Position numbers and translations under genes: made by a program
Assembly (NCBI GenBank): GCA_039915165.1
Contig: JBDSNU010000007.1
Coordinates: 113,812-177,811, forward strand
Direction of reading: 5' to 3'
Source of the DNA: Minisyncoccota bacterium
Lineage (GTDB): Bacteria > Patescibacteriota > Minisyncoccia > Phycocordibacterales > UBA9973
Length of the DNA: 64,000 nt
The notes under the pieces: model-generated
Told to the model about the DNA's origin: nothing
The model's input: only the letters and a program-made list of their open reading frames with translations
Database searches by the model: none
Part shown: positions 5,660 through 44,623 of the stretch, piece by piece
Layout of the letters: the number at the start of each line of letters is the position of its first letter
Numbering within the stretch: position 1 is the first letter of the stretch

Positions 5660-6862
5660 ATGCAAATATGCTATGGTTGTGGGTATATGAAGGAATTCAC
5701 ATTTTCTCAGCCGGTGAACATTGATACATTGCCGGCCACACTTTCCCAGCTAACCGGGTCACCGATAATTACTGGGGGCACTATCGATATATTAAACAAT
5801 GGTGATGAATTTTTTCCGTCACTATATACAGATCTCGAGGGCGCCAAAACTTCCATTGAGTTCAGTGTATACATTTGGAAGAAAGGTGTAGTAAGCACCA
5901 AAGTATGTAACCTTCTGATACAAAAAGCAAAACAAGGTGTACAAGTAAGACTATTACTTGATAGTTTTGGCGCACAACATACACCTGCAAATAAAATTGC
6001 TGAACTTAAAAAAGCAGGCGGAATGGTAGCGTGGTATCACCCGTTAAAATTTGGACTATTAATGAAGTTTTTCAAGCGTAACCATAGTCGATCTATCACG
6101 ATAGACAATACAATCTCATATACAGGGGGCATGGCAATTGCAGACTATTGGCTTGGTCATGCACAAGATAAGAATCATTGGAGAGATATCATGTTTCGCT
6201 TGAAAGGCCCCATCATCCATTCTGTTCAAGAGGCATTTACAAATATCTGGACTAGTGTTACCGGAGAAATACTTGTCGCTTCCCCCATCACTACACCGCC
6301 TGGAAATGAAATGCTTTCAATTGGTTATGTGAACGCATCTCCTGACCAAGATATGGAGCAACTATCTGCATTTTTCGCTACCACTATTGCTGCTGCCCGA
6401 GTATCAATAGATATTGTTACTCCTTATCTTATTCTTCAACCTCGGTTGAAAAAACAACTTATCAACGCAGTTCAACGAGGTGTGACAGTTCGCCTCTTAC
6501 TCCCCGGAAGATATATTGATTCAAAGATTGTGCAAGCAGCAAGTCAATATTCGTACAATGCATTACTCAGAGGCGGAATAAAAATTTTTGAATACAAGCC
6601 AACTATGATCCATGCAAAACTCTTGGTAGTTGATGGAGTATGGTCAATAATCGGTTCTGCCAATATCGACACGCGATCAACTTTTTATAATGTTGAAAAC
6701 AATATTGGTATAGCTGATGAGAAGTTTGCGGCCAAATTACAATCTATCATTCATGTTGAGATTACTAATGCTAGAGAAATTAAGGTCCGTAGATGGCAGC
6801 GTCGCTTTATATTTAGGAAAATCGCAGAATTTTTTGCTACCATTCCTGACGAGCAGTTTTAA
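5660..6862 (+). CDS. Phospholipase D / cardiolipin synthase family protein (ClsB-like, no TM segment).
   Basis: Second HKD motif is HAKLLVVDGVWSIIGSANID. The first motif is degenerate (NHSRSITIDNTISYTGGMAIAD). The alternative start is MKEF at 5687. Confidence 0.7.
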   Translation: MQICYGCGYMKEFTFSQPVNIDTLPATLSQLTGSPIITGGTIDILNNGDEFFPSLYTDLEGAKTSIEFSVYIWKKGVVSTKVCNLLIQKAKQGVQVRLLLDSFGAQHTPANKIAELKKAGGMVAWYHPLKFGLLMKFFKRNHSRSITIDNTISYTGGMAIADYWLGHAQDKNHWRDIMFRLKGPIIHSVQEAFTNIWTSVTGEILVASPITTPPGNEMLSIGYVNASPDQDMEQLSAFFATTIAAARVSIDIVTPYLILQPRLKKQLINAVQRGVTVRLLLPGRYIDSKIVQAASQYSYNALLRGGIKIFEYKPTMIHAKLLVVDGVWSIIGSANIDTRSTFYNVENNIGIADEKFAAKLQSIIHVEITNAREIKVRRWQRRFIFRKIAEFFATIPDEQF

Positions 6863-8548
6863 TTATTTATTATTCTTTGCAGCAATCACTGCTCTCGCGA
6901 GACGAAGTGTGTCGAAGGTATATTTGCCATCTAAGTGATTGTAAACAGGAGAAAGTAATGTCGTATCGCAGGCTGAAAAAGCGACAGTTATAGTTGGTAA
7001 TGCTTTTTGTAATTTTGCATCAACAAAATGAGCGATATTTTCGTAATTGAGTTTTTTAAGAATAATCAACTTTTCAATATGATCAAGAATTGTCGTCGCT
7101 ACCATTTTGCGCGCTTTGGCGATTTCAGATAATGACTTCCCTTCTAAGACTAAATCTTTTGTTAGGTCTAATGTGTCCTTCTTTTCTATTTTTTCAGACT
7201 TACCTTTTTTGGCCTCTAACGTACCTCCTGCAGCCAAAATGAAATTCTTGTGCATTGTTTCAATATCTTCTGGTTCAATATTGGCAAAAATACCCTGTGC
7301 TGAATCCGATTGCTCATGAAAGATTTGATCTTCTTGGAGAATTCGAGGGTGCACTTGAAATGTTTGCGCATTCCAACCTGCAAGATATAAACCGCTCAAT
7401 GTACGGACACGAGAAAGCGCCACATACCCTTGGCCGAATTCAAATACCTGACGCAGGTCCATCATGGCATTGTCGAGTGATAACCCTTGGCTTTTGTGAA
7501 TGGTAATTGCCCATGCTAAGCGTAACGGTATTTGCCCAATAGTTGCTTTGACCTTGCCATCTTCTTCAATCGTCCAATCCATAGGCTCAATAGTAATTTC
7601 TTCACGATTTTTAGTTTGGATGATGGGATATTTAGTGCCAGTTTCAAAACGCATTACAGTACCAGTGGTACCGTTTACATACCCTTTTTGCATATTATTT
7701 TTTGTACACATAACTGCAACTCCGATTTTCAAATCTAACCGTTCAGGAGAAAGACAGCCTTTTTTCAAACTAGCTACAAGTGACTCCGAGCCTTTACTAA
7801 ACATTGTGTATGTATTTGTTGGACCATCGATCGCATTTAGCGCAGCGGTATTGATAGCATCAACATCAGCATTGTGTGCATACAATCGAGTCATGTTTTC
7901 TGTGTCATCAAAAGAATCACTATCACTAATGAGTCTTTGTTCTAAATGAATCATGTGGTCATCCATGCGTTCATTGCGACGGATGGCTGAGAGCAAATGT
8001 AAAAATGTTTCATCACTTTGACGGTGTTGTTCTGTAAGATAACACACTAGTGGCTTCATTTCTTTCCATACACGCGCTTCAAATGCAAATGGTACAACAT
8101 CACCATATCGTGAAATCGGTGGCAGTTGAAAAAAGTCGCCAACCAAAACAACTTGTATACCACCAAATGGTTCTGGAGATTGCTTGATTGTTTTACATAC
8201 TGCATCCACTAGATCTAATGTAAATCCATCAATCATAGACACTTCGTCAATAATCAACACTTTTGTTTTATTGATACGTCGTACTAGATATTCTGTAGTC
8301 GATAATTTATCTAAATCGTATGGTGACAATGTTTTGCGAATACCAATACCACTCCATGAGTGTATGGTTTGCCCTTGAATATGAGTTGCTGCAATACCAG
8401 TTGAAGCAGTAATTGCCGGTTCAATGCCATGCTCTTTTAAATAAGAAACAAAGGCATTAATTGTGAAGGTTTTACCTGCACCTGGCTCCCCTGTCAAAAA
8501 GACGCTTGCCCCAGTCTTTAATATCGTTAATGCTTGATTTTGGGTCAT
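6863..8548 (-). CDS. RecD/Pif1-like ATP-dependent DNA helicase with a C-terminal helix-rich domain.
   Basis: Walker A GEPGAGKT and Walker B LIIDEVSMI are present, and the AAA_30/UvrD_C_2-like arrangement is seen. Confidence 0.7.
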   Translation of the reverse strand: MTQNQALTILKTGASVFLTGEPGAGKTFTINAFVSYLKEHGIEPAITASTGIAATHIQGQTIHSWSGIGIRKTLSPYDLDKLSTTEYLVRRINKTKVLIIDEVSMIDGFTLDLVDAVCKTIKQSPEPFGGIQVVLVGDFFQLPPISRYGDVVPFAFEARVWKEMKPLVCYLTEQHRQSDETFLHLLSAIRRNERMDDHMIHLEQRLISDSDSFDDTENMTRLYAHNADVDAINTAALNAIDGPTNTYTMFSKGSESLVASLKKGCLSPERLDLKIGVAVMCTKNNMQKGYVNGTTGTVMRFETGTKYPIIQTKNREEITIEPMDWTIEEDGKVKATIGQIPLRLAWAITIHKSQGLSLDNAMMDLRQVFEFGQGYVALSRVRTLSGLYLAGWNAQTFQVHPRILQEDQIFHEQSDSAQGIFANIEPEDIETMHKNFILAAGGTLEAKKGKSEKIEKKDTLDLTKDLVLEGKSLSEIAKARKMVATTILDHIEKLIILKKLNYENIAHFVDAKLQKALPTITVAFSACDTTLLSPVYNHLDGKYTFDTLRLARAVIAAKNNK

Positions 8549-8566: not shown

Positions 8567-11500
8567 TTAGCTGCGTTTTTTGCTGAATACTGCCATTATA
8601 ACTAGTGCGCCAATAGCTAATAGTCCGAGAACTATTACCTTACCGGGACCAAGTGCTGTAACACCAGCAGCGCTGGCACTGAGCCCTTTCAAGGTTACTT
8701 CCGGATCTGACATTATGGTTCCTTCATCTGGAGCAGGAGCAGTAAGTATTGTGGTTGATGTAGTTTTTTTCTTGAGCGGAGTTTTTATGTCTTCCGCATC
8801 AGGCAAAATATCATCACTGGACTCATTATTTACATTTTCTTCTGATCCATCTGTATCAGTAGGAGTAACTGTACTACTTTGCATCGATACTGAAACATTA
8901 TTTCCCGACGAAGTTGCAATGGGAGCAGTTGTTGTGGTTGGAATAATCGTTGAAGTACTACCACCACTCTCAACTTTTAATTGTTTTATTTCTTCCGTAT
9001 TTCCGGCCCTATCGATTGATACAAAATAAACTGTACTACCTACACTTGTTGCAAAAGGCTTATCATATATTTGCCATACAATATTGTCAGTAGAATATTT
9101 TGTATTAAGGATGCCCGCATTATCATCTGTAGCTTTCAATGTAACTAAGCCATCAGCATATGTCGCTGTTGTAATGGGTACGACACTATCTTTTGCTTGC
9201 TTCTCTTCTAGAGATGATGATGCTTCAACAGTACGATCAATGGTGCCGTCATTATTATCATCAATAGTAATACTTGGTGAGCTATTTTCTTTACTTAAGG
9301 TAATCGTACCAAGTGTTTTGTCTGATAATAATGGCACTGCATGATAGTATGTTTGATGCGTTACAATATCAGATTCATCACTGTGCGAAATATACATGTC
9401 ATACAATCCAGCGGATTGTGCCTGCTGGGTTATTTTATATTTTGGACCAGTAGGTAAAAATACAAATTTTTCATCATCAATAACATCATACTGCACATTA
9501 GGAATTCCATACTCTATTCCTCCATCAATAGTTGGTCCAGTATGTCTACCTAATTCATCGTACACATTAAGCATAACTGGACTGTGCACATCAATAGTAT
9601 CCCCAGCCAAATTACATTGAGTCGACATAGTTGATATATCATTATTGGTAGTAGGCGCCTTGCCATCAAGTATTTGTACTATTGTGTCTTGAATTACAGG
9701 CAGTGATGCCACTGTGCCGTGCGAACCTGCGTGGACATAATAATTGTGAGCACCATTTTCAGCGACCGCGCTACTAACAGGAACTACGCCATCACCTGAA
9801 CCGTATAATAATCTATGCTCAGGGATTAACTTAAATCCAGTTAATGTTAAAGATTGTTCTTTTGTTAACGTAAAACCAGTAATTGTTTTTGTATTACCAC
9901 ATCCAGCAAAATCATACTTATCAAATGTCGAAGTCATTGTATCAATTTTGTCATGAAGTTGGTGGGCAAATGAAAACATGTTGTCATTTCTCCCATCCGC
10001 GATCATATACTTTTCGATATTGTCCTGACTCATATCATGTATTACTTGCGTTCTATCTTGAATGTAATGACTAACACCATCGATATATTTTTTGCTCGGT
10101 AAAAGTTCATACACTGAGGGCATATTTTGTGTAATAGTTTTCACTCGCTGCTCATTTAGTACGGGGACTTGTAATAACGAACCGAGAGAAAATCTAAAGC
10201 CCATATCATCACCATACATCAATGTTTTGAATGTTTTCGGAGCGCCGAGATGTGGCACTGCGATATAAAATAGATGATCAAGCGGTGCGGTTGGGTTTTC
10301 AGAAATATACTCTTTCACTAATAATCCGCCCATACTATGCGCAATGATGGTTACCTTTTTCTTCCCGCTCTTCAGTAATGCTTTTGCGATCATGTCTTTC
10401 AACAAGGATTGATTAACTGTATTACTTAGTCGCCAGTCATAGGGAAAGACAAATAAGTTAGCACCTTCGATATATCCTTTTGTATGTAAGGCATTTATCA
10501 TACTATTAAATATATCTACCGATGATGCTGAGCGAACAATGTCGCCTACTACCATTGGGCGCACTGTACTTGGAATACCGGTTTGTAATAACTCTAGATC
10601 ATTTAAATAACTATCTGTCGGACTTAGTGCAAGCTTAGCAATATTGGGCCATAACTCACTCTTATCTCCATAGTCTTTTGTTAAGATCGAACCGGTTATT
10701 CCTGGAACTATAATTATAGGATTTTGATCAGCTGTCGGAGGAGTAACAACGGGAGCCTCTGTTGTTGTCGGCTCATCTTTCATCCCTAACCATGGTTTAT
10801 AGATAACCTCAGTAGTGTTTTTTGTAATAATTGAATCACCTTTTCCCCCACTATTACTTTTAATGGTTGGCCCTGAATCACTGCCCCAGCCGTTATTTTT
10901 TATAACTGCTTTTACCATATCGATAACTGATACCCCTATAGTATTTCCATGAAAATAATTGTTGGTAATATTTTTAATTACAGGATTATTTAGTACGAGT
11001 GCAATTTTACTCGTAGTGAAATCAGAATTCGTAATAGTCAGATCACCTTGCTGCTCTGCAATAATAGCTGTTCCCGAAATATCTTTAAAATTACTGTGAG
11101 TAACACTTACCCCGGAAGCGGTTGCCTTAATAGCACTGCATAGATTGTGGAAATTGGTATATTTAATTTTACTATCAGCATTTGCTGCAAGAATGATAGA
11201 TGACATGTTGAGTGGACAAGTGCCATCTCCATAAACATTTACTGGTGATGCCTCCGTACCATTCACCACCAATGTGCCTCCTTGAGCTACATTAATACTA
11301 AACCCATCTTGAATAAAAACAGTAATACCATAATCTATAGTCAGCGTACCGCCATTCAATACCGTAATACCAAACACATAATATTCTCCATCGCGGGAAT
11401 TAAAATGGTAATTTTGACCTTGTAAAATATCACCACCATAATTCCACCCTTTAAACCCTTTCCCTAAAAACGTTGTGCCTGAATGTGTAAATGTGCCGTA

Positions 11501-12148
11501 AACATCAATCTGTGCTGGAAATGCCGTATCAAGAAAAGTACTGTCAGTTAATGTCACCTTTCCGCGAGTATTGGTCATACCAGTATTACAATTTGTAAAC
11601 ATCATATGGGAGGCATCAAGCACCACATCGCGGTCAACAGTTATTCCTGTCGCTGCATCTTTTATTTCTACGTATGACAAAGATCCAGAAGAGTTAGCCA
11701 TAAAGGTTATACCTCCATGTTTATTGTTTGTTACTGTTTTTTCAACAGACATTGAAACGCTCATGGGAACAACTTCGGGAGTTTGTATATTTTCCTCTTT
11801 TATTGGTTCGCTGTTATTAATCTCTTGCGTTAAAGTTTTTGCGGCTGATTCTTCATCTTTAGAAATAACTATATGGTTTTTTGTTGTACCTTTTGCGATT
11901 AATTTTCCATAGACCACTAGTCGTCCATTTTGTGCAAAAAATAATTGTGTTCCGGCAGGTATGATTAGCGTGGCTCCTACACTGACAAAAACATCACCCT
12001 TCACGGTATACGTAACATCGGCATCTAAAGTAGTTTCTGTTCGCCCTGGTTTTAATTCCTCGGCATAGACTTTTATAGTACTAAAAATAAAACTGGCAAT
12101 GAGAACGGTTATGGTAATAAAAAATGTTTTTTGGAATGGTAATTTCAT
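8567..12148 (-). CDS. Giant secreted surface protein with parallel beta-helix repeats, an alpha/beta-hydrolase (lipase/esterase) domain, a Ser/Thr-rich linker and a C-terminal TM anchor.
   Basis: A signal peptide is present (MKLPFQKTFFITITVLIASFIFS...YA). PbH1-like repeats are seen (NITNNYFHGNTIGVSV). The lipase nucleophile elbow is IIAHSMGGLLV. The C-terminus is GPGKVIVLGLLAIGALVIMAVFSKKRS. Confidence 0.6.
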   Translation of the reverse strand: MKLPFQKTFFITITVLIASFIFSTIKVYAEELKPGRTETTLDADVTYTVKGDVFVSVGATLIIPAGTQLFFAQNGRLVVYGKLIAKGTTKNHIVISKDEESAAKTLTQEINNSEPIKEENIQTPEVVPMSVSMSVEKTVTNNKHGGITFMANSSGSLSYVEIKDAATGITVDRDVVLDASHMMFTNCNTGMTNTRGKVTLTDSTFLDTAFPAQIDVYGTFTHSGTTFLGKGFKGWNYGGDILQGQNYHFNSRDGEYYVFGITVLNGGTLTIDYGITVFIQDGFSINVAQGGTLVVNGTEASPVNVYGDGTCPLNMSSIILAANADSKIKYTNFHNLCSAIKATASGVSVTHSNFKDISGTAIIAEQQGDLTITNSDFTTSKIALVLNNPVIKNITNNYFHGNTIGVSVIDMVKAVIKNNGWGSDSGPTIKSNSGGKGDSIITKNTTEVIYKPWLGMKDEPTTTEAPVVTPPTADQNPIIIVPGITGSILTKDYGDKSELWPNIAKLALSPTDSYLNDLELLQTGIPSTVRPMVVGDIVRSASSVDIFNSMINALHTKGYIEGANLFVFPYDWRLSNTVNQSLLKDMIAKALLKSGKKKVTIIAHSMGGLLVKEYISENPTAPLDHLFYIAVPHLGAPKTFKTLMYGDDMGFRFSLGSLLQVPVLNEQRVKTITQNMPSVYELLPSKKYIDGVSHYIQDRTQVIHDMSQDNIEKYMIADGRNDNMFSFAHQLHDKIDTMTSTFDKYDFAGCGNTKTITGFTLTKEQSLTLTGFKLIPEHRLLYGSGDGVVPVSSAVAENGAHNYYVHAGSHGTVASLPVIQDTIVQILDGKAPTTNNDISTMSTQCNLAGDTIDVHSPVMLNVYDELGRHTGPTIDGGIEYGIPNVQYDVIDDEKFVFLPTGPKYKITQQAQSAGLYDMYISHSDESDIVTHQTYYHAVPLLSDKTLGTITLSKENSSPSITIDDNNDGTIDRTVEASSSLEEKQAKDSVVPITTATYADGLVTLKATDDNAGILNTKYSTDNIVWQIYDKPFATSVGSTVYFVSIDRAGNTEEIKQLKVESGGSTSTIIPTTTTAPIATSSGNNVSVSMQSSTVTPTDTDGSEENVNNESSDDILPDAEDIKTPLKKKTTSTTILTAPAPDEGTIMSDPEVTLKGLSASAAGVTALGPGKVIVLGLLAIGALVIMAVFSKKRS

Positions 12149-12214
12149 TCCAAAAATATACCAATTACCCCTTCAATAAAAATTGAAGGGGTAATAAATT
12201 ATTTCTCAGTTATT

Positions 12215-13069
12215 CTACTGTGGGAAATATCTCAATATCCAAGAACTTCCTGGTATCAATGGGAAGATATCATGTCCTGTTCGGCGCAAAAGATATGGTG
12301 GGATTTGGCTGAATGGGATGGTTTGTATTGTAGAAGCTGCCGGTACTGCCGTTGCAACAGCAGACGTACGGAAGACACTGAAGCTTGTGCCGTCTGCATT
12401 GATGGCAGAAGGTACTGCTAATGCAACGGTGGTATTTCCTGTATCAAGTAAATTAATCATTTGAGGATTCATTTGTGATATTGCTAGACGTTGACCATTT
12501 TGTACCGCAGTCGCTCCAGTAAACGGTACTGGTGTGAACCCTGACAAAGGAGCAAGTACTCCATTTACCTGTGCTCTCTCTTGAATCCATTCAGCGGAAG
12601 AATGTAAAGAATGATATTGAACAGTTTTTGCAAATTGTTGTTTGGTAGTGTTATTGGTAATGACAATATTCCAGATGTCGGCTGAAGTTTCAATGATAGC
12701 AACACTGATGGAGTCTTTGGGGTGAACAGCGAGATTCACTGGCGTTGAGTCTTCTGGTAGAAGTTCATACCACGCTTGATACGTAGCGCCATCACTGTTA
12801 GCAATTTCATAAACGCCGGCTTGAATCAAGTCTGCACTACCCCTACCACCAATACCCACCCATGTCGCATTTGAAGCCAAGGTAGTTGAGTATGAAAGTT
12901 CTGGCATGACAAATGTCCCACTCACCCCTGTATATGTTCCCTGCTCAACTGCATATCCACTCCAGTTAGTTGATGCATTTAAAGAAACGTCGGCATAGGC
13001 TTTTGGTATTACCAGAAAAGATAGTGAAAATATAACGGCTATCAATGCTGCTTTTATAGATTTATTCAT
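12215..13069 (-). CDS. Secreted peptidase G1 (eqolisin, glutamic peptidase) family protein.
   Basis: A signal peptide is present. The protein aligns to scytalidoglutamic peptidase: TNWSGYAV against SNWAGAV, WVGIGG...LIQAGV against WVGIDG...ILQTGV (catalytic Gln), YQAWYELLPE against YDAWYEWYPD, and SAEWIQE against NAEWIVE (catalytic Glu). Confidence 0.75.
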   Translation of the reverse strand: MNKSIKAALIAVIFSLSFLVIPKAYADVSLNASTNWSGYAVEQGTYTGVSGTFVMPELSYSTTLASNATWVGIGGRGSADLIQAGVYEIANSDGATYQAWYELLPEDSTPVNLAVHPKDSISVAIIETSADIWNIVITNNTTKQQFAKTVQYHSLHSSAEWIQERAQVNGVLAPLSGFTPVPFTGATAVQNGQRLAISQMNPQMINLLDTGNTTVALAVPSAINADGTSFSVFRTSAVATAVPAASTIQTIPFSQIPPYLLRRTGHDIFPLIPGSSWILRYFPQ

Positions 13070-13105
13070 ACTAATATATACGTTTCAAAGTTAATAATTG
13101 TTGCA

Positions 13106-14482
13106 TTAGGCAAGTACACTAGCGATGCGTGCAAGGGTCATCTCTTTTCCTAAAATACTAGCAACTTCAAATGGATCCGGTGATTTTTCTTTTCCTGTAA
13201 GCGCAACACGAAGTGGCCATAATACATTTCCCTTTCCTTCTTCATCGGCATATTCAATCACCGCAGCTTTTATACTGTCGTAATTCCATTCTGCTTCAGA
13301 TACTGGCGCCAATAAGTTACCAACGCGAGCAAGGTACTGTTTTGTTTTGATCAACCCATCAGTGTCTTCTTTCAATGTTTTCCATACCAACATTTTTTCA
13401 TCAACGAGAGGTTGTTTGAAGAAGTAATCAAACTCCCCTTCGACAGAATCAGGGCCTTCGGCATTTCCTAATAACATTTTTATATCCGAGAATTTTTCGA
13501 TGCGATCGCGAAGCAATTGTTCAATCTTTTTTAGCATTTCATGACTAGGGACAGTATCTTCGATCCATGATGGTAACCATGCATGTGCATGATCCCAAAA
13601 TGTTTTTTGATCAAACTGTTTAATATATTCACGATTAAACCAGTCTAACTTTTCAGGATTAAACATTGCGGGAGATTTTTGTACCTTACTGAGATCAAAT
13701 ATTTCAATCAACTCATCCTTGGTAAATAATTCTTGTTCAGTGCCGGGATTCCAGCCAACCATGGCAACCATGTTAAACAGTGCTTCGGGTAGATATCCTA
13801 AGTCTCGGTATTCTGTAAGTGCTAGTGCCCCTTTACGCTTTGAGAGTTTTTGTTTGTCTGATCCTAATACCAAAGGAAGGTGTGCGTATACGGGAGTCGG
13901 CGCACCAATAGCCTTTTGAATGAGTATTTGACGAGGTGTATTTGAAACATGATCCTCACCGCGAACTACATGAGTAACACCAGCATCAAAGTCATCAACG
14001 ACAACAGCAAGATGAAAAAGCGGTTCACGAATATTTTTTGCAATAACAAAATCGCCAAGGTCTTCAGTGTTCATAGTTATATTACCCTTTATTTCATCAA
14101 AGAATGTTACATTTCCATTTGGGTTTTTGAAACGTACAATTTCTTTAATTACACCCGAACCATCCTTTGCTTCTTCTTTTGAAATGTATGCAGATCCATC
14201 TTCAATCATTTTTTCGAGCACCGCTTGATGACGTTCAACATTTTCTGACTGACGAATAAATACATCATGCTCAAGACCCATCCATTCCAGACTTTCCATA
14301 ATATTTTCTTCGTACTCTTTTTTTGAACGCTCCTTGTCCGTATCTTCGATGCGTAATACAAATGTACCCTTATGTTTACGTGCATAAAGGTATGAGAATA
14401 TTGCTGTTCGGTATGCACCTGAGTGTAATTTCCCTGTCGGACTTGGTGCAAATCTTGTTACTACCTTTTTAGTATTTTCCAT
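13106..14482 (-). CDS. gltX: Glutamyl-tRNA synthetase.
   Basis: RFAPSPTGKLHSGA (HIGH-type) and KLSKRKGA (KMSKS) are present, at a length of 458 aa. Confidence 0.9.
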   Translation of the reverse strand: MENTKKVVTRFAPSPTGKLHSGAYRTAIFSYLYARKHKGTFVLRIEDTDKERSKKEYEENIMESLEWMGLEHDVFIRQSENVERHQAVLEKMIEDGSAYISKEEAKDGSGVIKEIVRFKNPNGNVTFFDEIKGNITMNTEDLGDFVIAKNIREPLFHLAVVVDDFDAGVTHVVRGEDHVSNTPRQILIQKAIGAPTPVYAHLPLVLGSDKQKLSKRKGALALTEYRDLGYLPEALFNMVAMVGWNPGTEQELFTKDELIEIFDLSKVQKSPAMFNPEKLDWFNREYIKQFDQKTFWDHAHAWLPSWIEDTVPSHEMLKKIEQLLRDRIEKFSDIKMLLGNAEGPDSVEGEFDYFFKQPLVDEKMLVWKTLKEDTDGLIKTKQYLARVGNLLAPVSEAEWNYDSIKAAVIEYADEEGKGNVLWPLRVALTGKEKSPDPFEVASILGKEMTLARIASVLA

Positions 14483-14564
14483 ATCCTCATCATAGCAAAA
14501 TATCGCTTTATTGACAAAAATACTTAAAGTTATATAGTTATAAAAACCCTTAAATCAAAAATGT

Positions 14565-22841: not shown

Positions 22842-23183
22842 ATGCCTACAGGAAATAAAAATCAAAGTGGTCGCGATACAAAGATTGAGGAACAAGTAAA
22901 AGAAATTGCCGCTCGCGTTATTGAACGTGAAAGCAACAAAACTGCACTGATCACTGTGAACTATGTTGAACTATATGAGAAAGGCCGCAAGGCAATGATC
23001 TATATCAGCGTACTTCCAGAAACTGGTGAAGAGTCAGCATTGAACTTCTTGAAGCGTAAGCGTATTGATATGCGTGATGAAGTAAAGAAGTACTTAAGAA
23101 TTCGTACTATTCCCTTTCTCGATGTTGCAATTGATATGGGAGAAAAAGCTCGTCGACACATCGACGAATTGTTGAAAGAATAG
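22842..23183 (+). CDS. rbfA: Ribosome-binding factor A.
   Basis: 113-aa KH-like protein immediately downstream of infB, in the conserved gene order. Confidence 0.8.
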   Translation: MPTGNKNQSGRDTKIEEQVKEIAARVIERESNKTALITVNYVELYEKGRKAMIYISVLPETGEESALNFLKRKRIDMRDEVKKYLRIRTIPFLDVAIDMGEKARRHIDELLKE

Positions 23184-23244
23184 TAAGATAGTGAAGCCGA
23201 CGGAAGCCCTTCGACAGATTTCTCCTTACGGAAAATCTTCTCAG

Positions 23245-23275
23245 GGCCGAAAATCGGCTATGCCGATTTTCGGCC
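23245..23275 (+). terminator. Hairpin terminator after rbfA. Its 3' arm overlaps the 5' end of tRNA-Cys by 4 nt.
   Basis: ggccgaaaatcggc-tat-gccgattttcggcc (14-bp perfect stem). Confidence 0.6.
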
Positions 23276-23343
23276 TGGTGGCCAAGTGGTAAGGCGGTTC
23301 TCTGCAAAAGAACTATACGCGAGTTCGATTCTCGCCCAGGCCT
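23272..23343 (+). tRNA. tRNA-Cys (GCA).
   Basis: Acceptor stem GGCCTGG/CCAGGCC. 3-bp D stem. Anticodon arm GTTCT-CTGCAAA-AGAAC. T arm GCGAG-TTCGATT-CTCGC. Confidence 0.8.
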
Positions 23344-23396
23344 CCTTCGCCGCGCTGAAGCTCGTAAGAGCGAAAGCGGGACGAGTAAGTAATATT

Positions 23397-23479
23397 GCCC
23401 GAGTGGTGGAATGGTAGACACGGGGGACTTAAAATCCCCTGCCCTCACCGGCGTGTGGGTTCGAGTCCCACCTCGGGCA
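23397..23479 (+). tRNA. tRNA-Leu (TAA).
   Basis: GCCCGAG...CTCGGGC acceptor stem. Anticodon loop CTTAAAA. Long variable arm. T arm GTGGG-TTCGAGT-CCCAC. Confidence 0.8.
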
Positions 23480-23523
23480 CAGAAAAGTAAATAAAGACAA
23501 ACATCAATGTGACTATTGAATTT

Positions 23524-23588
23524 GGGTGCACAGACAAAACAAAAAGCATTACCGTTTCGGTAATGCTTTTTGTTTTGTCTGTGCACCC
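23524..23588. terminator. 65-nt perfect hairpin (31-bp stem, 3-nt loop) between the convergent tRNA pairs. It overlaps the 3' end of tRNA-Lys.
   Basis: gggtgcacagacaaaacaaaaagcattaccg-ttt-cggtaatgctttttgttttgtctgtgcaccc. Confidence 0.85.
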
Positions 23589-23654
23589 AGCAGGACTCGA
23601 ACCTGCGACAGTCTCCTTAAGAGGGAGCTACTCTACCAACTGAGTTATGGGTGC
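23582..23654 (-). tRNA. tRNA-Lys (CTT).
   Basis: Acceptor stem GCACCCA/TGGGTGC. D arm ACTC-AGTTGGTA-GAGT. Anticodon loop CTCTTAA. T arm GCAGG-TTCGAGT-CCTGC. Confidence 0.8.
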
Positions 23655-23668
23655 ATAACCGTACAGAG

Positions 23669-23750
23669 TGCTGGGAGGGAGACTTGAACTCCCAAGCCTT
23701 GCGGCATTAGTTCCTAAGACTAACGTGTATACCAATTCCACCATCCCAGC
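23669..23750 (-). tRNA. tRNA-Leu (TAG).
   Basis: Acceptor stem GCTGGGA/TCCCAGC. Anticodon arm TTAGT-CTTAGGA-ACTAA. Long variable arm. T arm GGGAG-TTCAAGT-CTCCC. Confidence 0.8.
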
Positions 23751-41762: not shown

Positions 41763-42602
41763 TTAATCAGGCAAGAATCCACCTGACTGCATTTTCCATA
41801 AATGAGCATACTTTCCATTCTGTTGAAGCAATTCTTCATGCGTACCATCCTCAACAATTTTTCCACCTTCCACAAATACAATACGGTCCATTGATTGAAG
41901 TGTCGAGAGTCGGTGAGCAATAGCAATGACTGTCTTCCCTTTCATTAGAATGGTTAATGCTTCTTGTACCTTTCCCTCACTTTCGCTATCAAGGGCACTC
42001 GTTGCTTCATCGAGAATAAATAGCGGGCTGTTCTTAAGTATGGCTCGAGCAATTGCAATACGCTGTCGTTGTCCACCCGAAAGCTTCACGCCCCGTTCAC
42101 CGACAACAGTGTTGTAGCCTTTTGGCAATGTTGAAATAAAGTCATCGGCATAGGCCATCTTTCCTGCTTGTTCGACTACTTCTCTTGAAGCCTCGGATGA
42201 GCCGTAGCGAATGTTTTCAGCAATCGTCGTATGGAAGAGCGATGTATCCTGAGAAATAAAAGAAATATGAGAACGGAGAGAATCTTGGGTCATTGTTGTT
42301 ATATCCACATCATTAATTTTTATTGTTCCACTTTGTGGGTCAAAGAACCTCAATAAAAGATTTATCGCCGTAGTCTTTCCCGCGCCGCTCAAGCTTGGCT
42401 TGAAGCCGCATAGCAGATGAACGTGGTCACCGTCGGTGCCGATGGCTTCGAACTCGATGTCGTAGCGTTCCTGGATGGAGCGGGAAATCTCCAGAATCGC
42501 TCTGTCTATCCGTGGCGTCAGCAGCGCCTTGCGGTACTTTAACGGAAAGACTATGTGATAGTGGGTGTCGTACGTGCTGTGGTTTGCGCTCTTGTTCGCC
42601 AT
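41763..42602 (-). pseudogene. Chimeric ORF. An IS200/IS605 TnpA N-terminal fragment (about 64 aa) is fused in frame to the C-terminal nucleotide-binding domain of an ABC exporter whose TMD is missing.
   Basis: The N-terminus HYHIVFPLKYRKALL...GDHVHLL matches the TnpA HuH motif. Walker A is LSGAGKTT, the signature is LSGGQRQRIAIARA, Walker B is ILDEATSALD and the H-loop is IAHRLST. GC content changes sharply at about 42405. Confidence 0.7.
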
Positions 42603-43366: not shown

Positions 43367-43996
43367 TCAAGGTTTTTCTGCGAGAAACATCCAGTCAACG
43401 TCAGCAAACCAGTGGCCATCAACAACCACCAGGCTAAGCCTGCGCCTGCCATCGTCACGACTGACGCACAGGAAGCAACGGCGACCATCCTTGCCCTGAA
43501 ACACTGAACTTTCAGCGTTTTCTGCGGCGACAAAGTCTTTGCCGGCAAGTTCTGCGGGAAGCTTGTTTTCGGGAACGGCAGCCATGGCACCGGTTAAGTA
43601 GTTTGGTGCACTTTTGCATAAGGTCAGGCCGAACTTGTTCACGTACGCTTCCTCGTCGCCACTGTCCACGTTTTCGGTGACAGGGACGAAGTAGATGCGC
43701 TTTGCGCCAGCTGCTTCCAGTAACGGAATGCGGTCGTGATCATCGCTGATCCAATCGTACACGCTGTCGTAGTTTCCTTTCTCGATCGCCAGAGCGATGT
43801 TATTAATCGGATCTACAACAACAGAATACAAATCCTGAATCTTCGCTTCGCGGTCGGCCAATAGCTTGCCGAGGTTTTTCAGATCGTCTTCGGTGAGGAA
43901 TTCGATCGCTTTGTCGGAACCTTTGGCGTCCGTGATTCCTTGCCTCACCAAGACTGCGTAGTCTGAGTCGGCAATGATAAGAATTGTTTCGGGCAT
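43367..43996 (-). CDS. Hypothetical protein in the high-GC island. The probable start is MPETILIIADSDYAV at 43996; the ORF track extends it to 44134.
   Basis: 210-aa ORF at about 52% GC. No confident family assignment. Confidence 0.4.
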   Translation of the reverse strand: MPETILIIADSDYAVLVRQGITDAKGSDKAIEFLTEDDLKNLGKLLADREAKIQDLYSVVVDPINNIALAIEKGNYDSVYDWISDDHDRIPLLEAAGAKRIYFVPVTENVDSGDEEAYVNKFGLTLCKSAPNYLTGAMAAVPENKLPAELAGKDFVAAENAESSVFQGKDGRRCFLCVSRDDGRRRLSLVVVDGHWFADVDWMFLAEKP

Positions 43997-44155
43997 TAGT
44001 ATGTTTTTACAGTGTTTTGAAAAGAAATACGTTTTTAGTATCATAGCATGAATTGAGTATAAAGTCAATGATTTAAAGGCTATGCCCAAAAAGCCTCGTT
44101 TTTTCGCCACGACTACACATTTTCCCCGATCCAAGCTAAGGTACCCAAACCTTCC

Positions 44156-44623
44156 TTAACAAAGCCCCATGCCTCCATTCTCCCTCACCCAGTCCACCCA
44201 CACGTCAAAGTCCCTGTTATTCTCCATGATCGCAAGCGACCTGATGACCGCCATCGCAAACGCATCGGCCAGGTCGTCATGTCCCTCGATGCCAAATCCG
44301 GTCAGTTGGCTGACGAGCTCCTCCGCGCCATGCCTCGGGAACTGGATAATTCCTGTCTGTATGTAGTGCGAGGTCATGGCAAGGCGCGAGCGCTTGTCGG
44401 TCGTGTTCTTCACGCCTTCCACCTGTACTCCTGATCCAGAGAGCTGGTCCGCATAGATTTCCTGAAAGCCGTTCGACTCGATCACCACCAACGGTTCCAT
44501 GTCATACGGCAGGTTCTTTGCGAGCATCCGTATCGTCCTCGTTGTTTCGGGATACGGCATTCGCTTGTTGATTGGATTTGGCAGGATGTACATTTTGATG
44601 TCCCTGTCCTTCTGATGCAGCAC
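44156..44623 (-). pseudogene. Phage terminase large subunit C-terminal nuclease domain fragment (ATPase domain missing).
   Basis: The C-terminal HDDLADAFAMAV motif and RNaseH-like nuclease domain pattern are present. Only 155 aa remain. Confidence 0.55.

Follow-up and report, generated by a model that had tools for sequence, protein, structure and literature searches.

A predicted secreted G1 glutamic peptidase with a clade-specific C-terminal tail in a Minisyncoccota bacterium

The closest described relatives of the protein reported here are two fungal members of the G1 peptidase family (eqolisins), scytalidoglutamic peptidase (SGP, or scytalidopepsin B; MEROPS G01.001, PDB 1S2B and 2IFW) and aspergilloglutamic peptidase (AGP; PDB 1Y43). 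Both are secreted enzymes with an acidic domain, in which two seven-stranded sheets form a half-pipe cleft, and with a Gln/Glu dyad. Fungal G1 preprosegments are roughly 55 amino acids long and rich in positive charges (PMC6154417). Stocchi et al. (PMC6154417) propose, in SGP numbering, that G8, G41, G44, G55, W67, E69 and P72 are required together with either D43 or G43; G43 is a tolerated variant seen in fungi, bacteria and archaea, and the D43A mutant of SGP keeps about 20% of its activity (PMC6154417). Bacterial and archaeal members of the family are documented as well (PMC3009609, PMC6154417). They lack the disulfides of the fungal enzymes (PMC3009609), and in published trees the prokaryotic and fungal enzymes cluster apart (PMC3009609, PMC6154417). 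The first bacterial member to be characterized, pepG1 from Alicyclobacillus sp. DSM 15716, was described in 2010 as a pepstatin-insensitive enzyme with optima at pH 3-4 and 60 degrees C (PMC3009609). It comes from a thermoacidophile, whose habitat matches that pH optimum. The SignalP site of its precursor lies after residue 33 and the mature N-terminus at residues 60-62, which leaves about 27 prosegment residues (PMC3009609). The G1 enzymes characterized so far work in the range of pH 2-5. An uncharacterized prokaryotic comparison set is provided by Chloroflexota homologs of ~428 aa that carry the NCBI name 'G1 family glutamic endopeptidase'.

We analysed a window of 64,000 nucleotides (the whole stretch of DNA under study) from a Minisyncoccota bacterium; a taxonomy look-up gives Paceibacterota as a synonym of this phylum, which belongs to the CPR/Patescibacteria. 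The gene of interest is a complete ATG-to-stop reading frame of 284 codons in the ORF list:

12215..13069, minus strand: G1 peptidase precursor gene, stop codon included (ORF list, PF01828, NCBI identity)

Its 284-aa product matches the Pfam model PF01828 (Peptidase_A4), which represents MEROPS family G1, with E=5.8e-35 and a score of 121 bits, five times the gathering cutoff of 22.3, and aa 34-214 align to profile positions 1-190 of 206. This was the best profile match, and no non-G1 beta-sandwich family did better. In a phmmer search of all PDB sequences, the only significant matches were SGP (3.7e-10, with aa 33-213 aligned to chain residues 3-194) and the heavy chain of AGP, listed as aspergillopepsin II (5.8e-10), the third match being insignificant at E=0.13. 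NCBI lists a protein identical to the 284-aa sequence (P0001) under the name 'MAG: G1 family glutamic endopeptidase [Candidatus Paceibacterota bacterium]'. A scan of the protein against NCBIfam returned zero matches at E<=0.01, so that this name presumably comes from another rule. We regard membership of the G1 family as virtually certain. The G1 identity is already known, since the same protein is so annotated publicly, and the family assignment brings no novelty, as eqolisins of bacteria and archaea have been documented since 2010.

At E<=1e-3 the homolog search yielded 2599 proteins, mostly prokaryotic, with Paceibacterota, Nomurabacteria and Chloroflexota among the named sources; a relative with 66% identity belongs to 'Candidatus Nomurabacteria'. 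The statement in the first-pass annotation that the family is mainly fungal thus reflects an outdated view of 2004-2010, as the characterization of pepG1 in 2010 also indicates. Within the catalytic domain, identity to the window protein is 69-79% in its own clade, 50-54% for the other prokaryotic G1 proteins and 25% for SGP and AGP. A neighbour-joining tree places the window protein in a tight clade nested among the prokaryotic sequences and well away from the fungal enzymes, in agreement with the published split between the prokaryotic and fungal branches (PMC3009609, PMC6154417); pepG1 likewise belongs to the prokaryotic branch. We found no literature linking G1 or Peptidase_A4 to Patescibacteria.

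The fold was predicted with AlphaFold2 (AF2) from an alignment of 75 homologs, and the resulting model has a mean pLDDT of 84.5. In this model the core (aa ~30-237) is all-beta, with pLDDT mostly above 90, and corresponds to the following segment:

12359..12979, minus strand: catalytic beta-sandwich domain, aa 31-237 (AF2 and Foldseek)

The model shows the two-sheet beta-sandwich of the 'half-pipe' type expected for G1. When compared with the PDB by Foldseek, its top five matches were all SGP or AGP structures (2ifw_A, 2ifr_A, 1s2b, 1y43_B and 3trs_D; E 2e-14 to 1e-8, TMt 0.79-0.85), led by SGP 2ifw_A with E=2.3e-14 and TMt 0.81, and with the AGP entries 1y43_B and 3trs_D at TMt 0.84-0.85. Matches to YncM/CPAVM1, neprosin, lectins and glucanases were at least 100-fold weaker. 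Among these, neprosin, a prolyl endopeptidase of the glutamic class (PDB 7ZU8 and related entries), is a distantly similar beta-sandwich that has a zymogen mechanism and catalytic residues of acidic type. However, its Foldseek match is weak (E about 1e-5, TM about 0.4-0.5, 10% identity), and it represents a separate family with a Glu/Glu dyad, of which the window protein is not a member.

In the translation, the motifs LIQAGV and SAEWIQE occupy aa 81-86 and aa 158-164, respectively, and contain the two putative catalytic residues:

12821..12823, minus strand: codon caa of catalytic Gln83 in LIQAG, equivalent to SGP Q53 (sequence read, two alignments)
12578..12580, minus strand: codon gag of catalytic Glu164, the last E of SAEWIQE, equivalent to SGP E136 (sequence read, two alignments)

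Of the two glutamates in the second motif, E160 pairs with SGP E132 and E164 with SGP E136, which identifies E164, and not E160, as the catalytic one. Both Q83 and E164 are invariant in the 75-sequence alignment. They are 81 residues apart, compared with 82 in pepG1 (Q117/E199) and 83 in SGP (Q107/E190). In the phmmer alignment, read in the SGP numbering of PMC6154417, G8, G41, G44, Q53 and G55 of SGP correspond to G38, G72, G75, Q83 and G85 of the window protein, and W67, E69, P72 and E136 to W100, E102, P105 and E164. An independent MAFFT alignment of 22 prokaryotic homologs with the two fungal enzymes reproduced every hallmark column. The one substitution is at D43 of SGP, where the window protein has G74; all sampled prokaryotic sequences have glycine at this position. 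The motifs WVGIxG, [IL]Q[AT]G, Y-x-AWYE-x-x-P and AE[WF]IxE are likewise shared with SGP and AGP, from which the window protein differs by its low identity (about 25%), the lack of disulfides, the D43 to Gly change and the bacterial rather than fungal host. The superposition on SGP and the sequence alignment suggest that Gln83 and Glu164 would face one cleft. The other prokaryotic G1 homologs have an identical LIQAG and the same hallmark columns, including G at SGP position 43.

The N-terminus, judged by eye, resembles a Sec signal peptide: it has a basic n-region, a hydrophobic h-region and an A-x-A site, and reads MNKSIKAALIAVIFSLSFLVIPKAYA followed by DVS across the predicted cleavage site:

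12992..13069, minus strand: predicted Sec signal peptide, aa 1-26, MNKSIKAALIAVIFSLSFLVIPKAYA, cleavage after AYA (sequence by eye)

A26 is invariant within the clade, and AF2 models aa 3-19 as a lone helix. The conserved NWSGY starts only nine residues past the predicted cleavage site, too close to it for an N-terminal prosegment to fit in between. The protein therefore lacks the basic prosegment that characterized G1 enzymes commonly have at the N-terminus, a shared property of theirs and not one by which membership of the family is assigned. The whole protein contains no Cys, and the calculated pI of aa 27-237 (the catalytic domain with the four preceding residues) is 4.48, within a clade range of 4.05-4.67. 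The absence of Cys and the acidic domain fit the report on the bacterial G1 enzyme (PMC3009609). By its published description (PMC3009609), pepG1 resembles the window protein in being Sec-exported, in having a cysteine-free mature enzyme and in the nearly equal spacing of its dyad (Q117/E199 against Q83/E164), whereas the ~27 residues between its signal site and mature N-terminus have essentially no counterpart here, and the window protein has in addition a conserved C-terminal tail. The first-pass annotation had described a secreted protein that can be matched block by block to scytalidoglutamic peptidase and keeps the catalytic Gln and Glu in their LIQAGV and SAEWIQE environments, and had named the profile search, the predicted fold and the Gln/Glu pair as the points on which this would turn. 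On each of them the results given above agree with its description, the secretion signal being predicted by eye.

The catalytic domain ends with the motif F-x-V-x-R-T-S-A, which is followed by a linker and then by the conserved tail:

12317..12358, minus strand: variable Ala/Thr/Pro/Ser linker, aa 238-251 (clade alignment, low pLDDT)
12218..12316, minus strand: clade-specific C-terminal tail, aa 252-284, PFSQIPPYLLRRTGHDIFPLIPGSSWILRYFPQ (clade conservation)

The linker varies in length and sequence across the clade, and the tail has the clade consensus IPPFELHRTGHxIxPxxPGxxWxIxF. The tail of the window protein is basic, with a pI of about 10, and the tails of most relatives range from neutral to basic, several clade members having neutral or acidic ones (e.g., P0020, pI 4.2). 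Most other prokaryotic homologs end in a short A/T/P linker and a basic, Arg-rich stretch that does not contain the ELHRTGH...W.I..F motif. These homologs also differ by a 170-250-aa N-terminal extension (with PF22819 in a few of them), which is missing in the Paceibacterota clade. We searched for the tail elsewhere with a profile of 36 positions, whose sensitivity is limited. Among the 1286 six-frame ORFs of the window and of four related loci (L001-L004), the tail HMM matched G1 genes only, and among 1.84 billion cluster representatives there were six matches, the sole genuine one being the representative of the G1 clade. Of the other candidate carriers, P0122-P0125 are mistranslated CRISPR arrays with FQLHHTGIKT repeats, and P0121 is a simple tandem repeat. 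As judged from these sequence searches, the tail is exclusive to the Paceibacterota G1 clade. The lack of a prosegment and the clade-exclusive conserved tail make for a mildly unusual architecture, a small variant of the G1 design, which raises a small question about the control of prokaryotic G1 peptidases.

A possible, although rather unlikely, explanation is that the tail is a C-terminal prosegment or autoinhibitor, i.e., a basic pseudo-substrate that would occupy the acidic cleft until its autocatalytic removal at low pH. It is similarly doubtful that such a tail would take the place of the basic N-terminal prosegment of the fungal enzymes and pepG1. Pointing in this direction are the absence of N-terminal room for a prosegment, the conservation of the tail behind a flexible linker, its charge (pI about 10 against 4.5 for the domain), its restriction to G1 proteins and the Arg-rich C-termini of most prokaryotic homologs, positive charge being likewise abundant in the fungal prosegments (PMC6154417). 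However, aa 238-284 were disordered and undocked, with pLDDT 35-60, in both AF2 runs, one on the 75-sequence alignment and the other on a clade-only alignment of 25 sequences; moreover, several clade members have the neutral or acidic tails mentioned above, and we found no literature report of a C-terminal prosegment in any G1 enzyme. The broader proposal, that the clade represents a new zymogen or regulatory design with a tethered tail acting as an autoinhibitory pseudo-substrate or a pH-released latch, is slightly more doubtful still. If it held, the Arg-rich C-terminal tails seen across prokaryotic G1 homologs might represent this device in a simpler form.

Alternatively, the tail could be a retention or sorting element that holds the protease on the cell envelope, as might be suggested by its C-terminal position behind a Ser/Thr/Ala/Pro linker on an exported protein, and by its basic cluster and hydrophobic end. 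We consider this distinctly unlikely. If the tail were a general sorting signal, one would expect it on further exported proteins, and its exclusivity to the G1 clade argues against this: no other ORF matched in the window or the four related loci, and no genuine non-G1 match was found among the 1.84 billion representatives, within the limited sensitivity of the 36-position profile. Furthermore, the tail has no hydrophobic stretch of transmembrane length and matches no sorting-domain model of NCBIfam. The G1-only matches in both searches, made with this low-sensitivity profile, led us to reject a sorting signal shared with other proteins.

The G1 gene lies between a tRNA synthetase gene and the gene of a large surface protein, all on the same strand:

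13106..14482, minus strand: gltX (glutamyl-tRNA synthetase), upstream neighbour (Pfam tRNA-synt_1c, 2.3e-83)
12164..12195, no strand assigned: perfect 14-bp inverted repeat, a terminator-like hairpin between the G1 stop and the LCAT start (terminator scan)
8567..12148, minus strand: LCAT-like surface protein of 1193 aa, downstream neighbour (Pfam, NCBIfam NF047446, sequence)

The gap of 36 nt between gltX and the G1 start is free of hairpins; in L001-L004 the two genes are separated by 22-40 nt or overlap, again with no hairpin between them. The best promoter-like site is located upstream of gltX, at 14517..14489. Since gltX is always close and no hairpin intervenes, we infer a gltX-G1 transcription unit, and G1 is more likely cotranscribed with gltX. 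On the downstream side, the RNA fold of the 12164..12195 hairpin has a free energy of -24.6 kcal/mol. As a conserved terminator between the G1 and LCAT genes this hairpin was rejected, because L001 has only a weaker form (-11.4) and none is evident in L002 or L004. All loci have a conserved TATA-like motif ahead of the LCAT start codon.

The downstream protein has an LCAT-like lipase domain (PF02450, 1.1e-23) with an AHSMGG motif, a region matching the Pfam Beta_helix model with 22.2 bits, which is below the cutoff, an OmpL47-type domain (NCBIfam NF047446), a signal-peptide-like N-terminus and a C-terminal hydrophobic membrane anchor. Its earlier description as a beta-helix/lipase protein therefore agrees with the domain matches, the beta-helix part at a sub-threshold score. 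The further claim that the two genes form a secreted hydrolase pair was not supported. According to this proposal, the peptidase and the LCAT-like lipase would be a functionally coupled module, for example one attacking proteins and lipids of a host envelope together. The genes are indeed on the same strand and adjoin each other at a distance of 66 nt, they are adjacent in L001, L002 and L004 and nearly so in the P0002 contigs, both proteins have export signals, and such a module would be plausible under an episymbiotic lifestyle. However, the adjacency belongs to a housekeeping block, SpoU-GltX-G1-LCAT-Pif1, that is collinear in close relatives at 59-80% protein identity, and hence is not independent evidence, being indistinguishable from inherited gene order. 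In L003 (P0014, 60% identity), GltX-G1-Pif1 is kept and the LCAT gene is missing; in the P0002 contigs, a 235-aa gene is interposed between the G1 and LCAT genes; and L005 and L006, which carry more distant G1 genes, have other, unrelated genes beside them. The terminator-like hairpin separates the two genes in the window, and the TATA-like motif hints at a promoter of the LCAT gene's own. Thus, across the loci compared, co-occurrence or adjacency beyond shared ancestry was not found for the two genes. The adjacency to the LCAT-like lipase is conserved gene order, functional coupling is not supported, and we judge it quite improbable.

Taken together with the invariant dyad, the fold and the export signal, the gene very probably encodes an active secreted G1 glutamic peptidase. 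In the mechanism that we propose, the precursor would be exported via Sec and cut after Ala26, and the roughly 210-residue two-sheet beta-sandwich would cleave peptide bonds as scytalidoglutamic peptidase does. By analogy with that enzyme, Glu164 would activate water as the general acid/base, and the side-chain amide of Gln83 would polarise the scissile carbonyl and stabilise the tetrahedral intermediate. On the same analogy, the enzyme is probably insensitive to pepstatin and most active at acidic pH, the domain pI of 4.5 being the only, and an indirect, pointer to the latter. The opposite view, that the protein is a non-catalytic beta-sandwich (lectin- or glucanase-like, or a pseudo-peptidase) merely resembling G1, could appeal to the kinship of the G1 fold with concanavalin-A-like lectins and glucanases (weak Foldseek matches, E 1e-4 to 1e-3) and to the non-peptidase homologs that MEROPS lists in G1 (PMC3009609), but it is highly improbable given that the dyad and the other hallmark positions are conserved, and invariant across 75 homologs, that the SGP/AGP matches stand 5-10 orders of magnitude above any lectin or glucanase match and the Pfam score far exceeds its threshold. 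For an active G1 peptidase, extracellular proteolysis supplying peptides and amino acids to a biosynthetically poor organism would be the most plausible role.

The position after gltX is kept in five genomes at 59-80% protein identity, and the G1 gene is inherited vertically within the clade at this fixed place just downstream of gltX. Recent horizontal acquisition was rejected, as the GC content of the gene region equals that of the rest of the window and the position is kept in relatives down to 59% identity. There is one G1 gene each in the window and in L001-L004, with no paralogs beyond it. An ultra-small, host-dependent CPR lineage thus stably keeps a secreted protease of the acid type at one fixed place in the genome, a point that bears on amino acid acquisition by CPR bacteria. 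An Rfam scan of the window returned tRNAs only and no rRNA. With ClpB, GltX, a SpoU methylase, a Pif1-type helicase, GyrA, pyruvate kinase and tRNAs among its genes, the window fits a small bacterial chromosome.

The giant LCAT/beta-helix surface protein encoded downstream of the glutamic peptidase (G1) gene shows a clean presence/absence polymorphism among the related loci, being absent in L003, the locus of the P0014 relative. There, the position of the LCAT/beta-helix gene is occupied only by a spacer of 736 nt (6874..7609), in which a single 52-aa ORF lies; the same slot in the other genomes holds an LCAT/beta-helix gene of roughly 1200 aa. In the window, a PLD-type gene lies less than 2 kb from the LCAT-like surface lipase gene (8567..12148, minus strand), so that two enzymes acting on lipids are encoded close together:

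5660..6862, plus strand, PLD-type enzyme, cardiolipin-synthase-like, with two PLDc_2 domains

Host lipids are thought to be a dependency of organisms of this type.

Short conserved TATA-like motifs were found 5-12 nt upstream of the start codons of both the G1 and the LCAT-like genes, in the window as well as in relatives (L001-L004):

Window spacer 13070..13105 and its L001-L004 equivalents, before the G1 start codon, CGTATATAT(A/T)AGT
Window spacer 12149..12214 and its L001-L004 equivalents, before the LCAT-like start codon, TTG(C/G)TATA(C/T)

These motifs could be -10-like promoter elements with very short leaders; alternatively, they could represent a lineage-specific translation-initiation context.

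Outside the CPR clade, most prokaryotic G1 homologs (P0032-P0120, Chloroflexota type) have an N-terminal extension of 170-250 aa that follows a membrane- or signal-like start and is annotated with PF22819 in a few of these proteins, and most likewise carry a short Arg-rich C-terminal tail. The combination of this extension and tail is not discussed in PMC3009609 or PMC6154417. Among the matches of the G1 C-terminal tail profile in the representative library, P0122-P0125 are CRISPR arrays called as ORFs, in which the unit FQLHHTGIKT repeats at regular spacing and the same repeat, read in other frames, gives FNCTIQELK and SIAPYRN. Such mistranslated arrays give false matches to short basic motifs.

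The 42-46 kb region of the window could represent a mobile island or else the scar of a rearrangement. It includes a stretch with a GC content of 0.47, compared with about 0.39 elsewhere in the window, which is bordered by a composite ORF and contains a methylase fragment:

41763..42602, minus strand, Y1 transposase/ABC ATPase composite ORF of 279 aa
45078..45638, DNA methylase fragment

In the composite ORF, aa 10-72 correspond to an N-terminal fragment of an IS200-like Y1 transposase, and aa 72-202, continuing in the same reading frame, to the ATPase domain of an ABC transporter. Two further ORFs inside this stretch, 43367..44134 and 44156..44623, have no Pfam match.

Finally, four tRNA genes are clustered inside 480 nt:

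23272..23750, both strands, tRNA genes Cys, Leu-taa, Lys-ctt and Leu-tag

The listed 159-aa ORF at 23107..23586 overlaps this cluster and is probably spurious.
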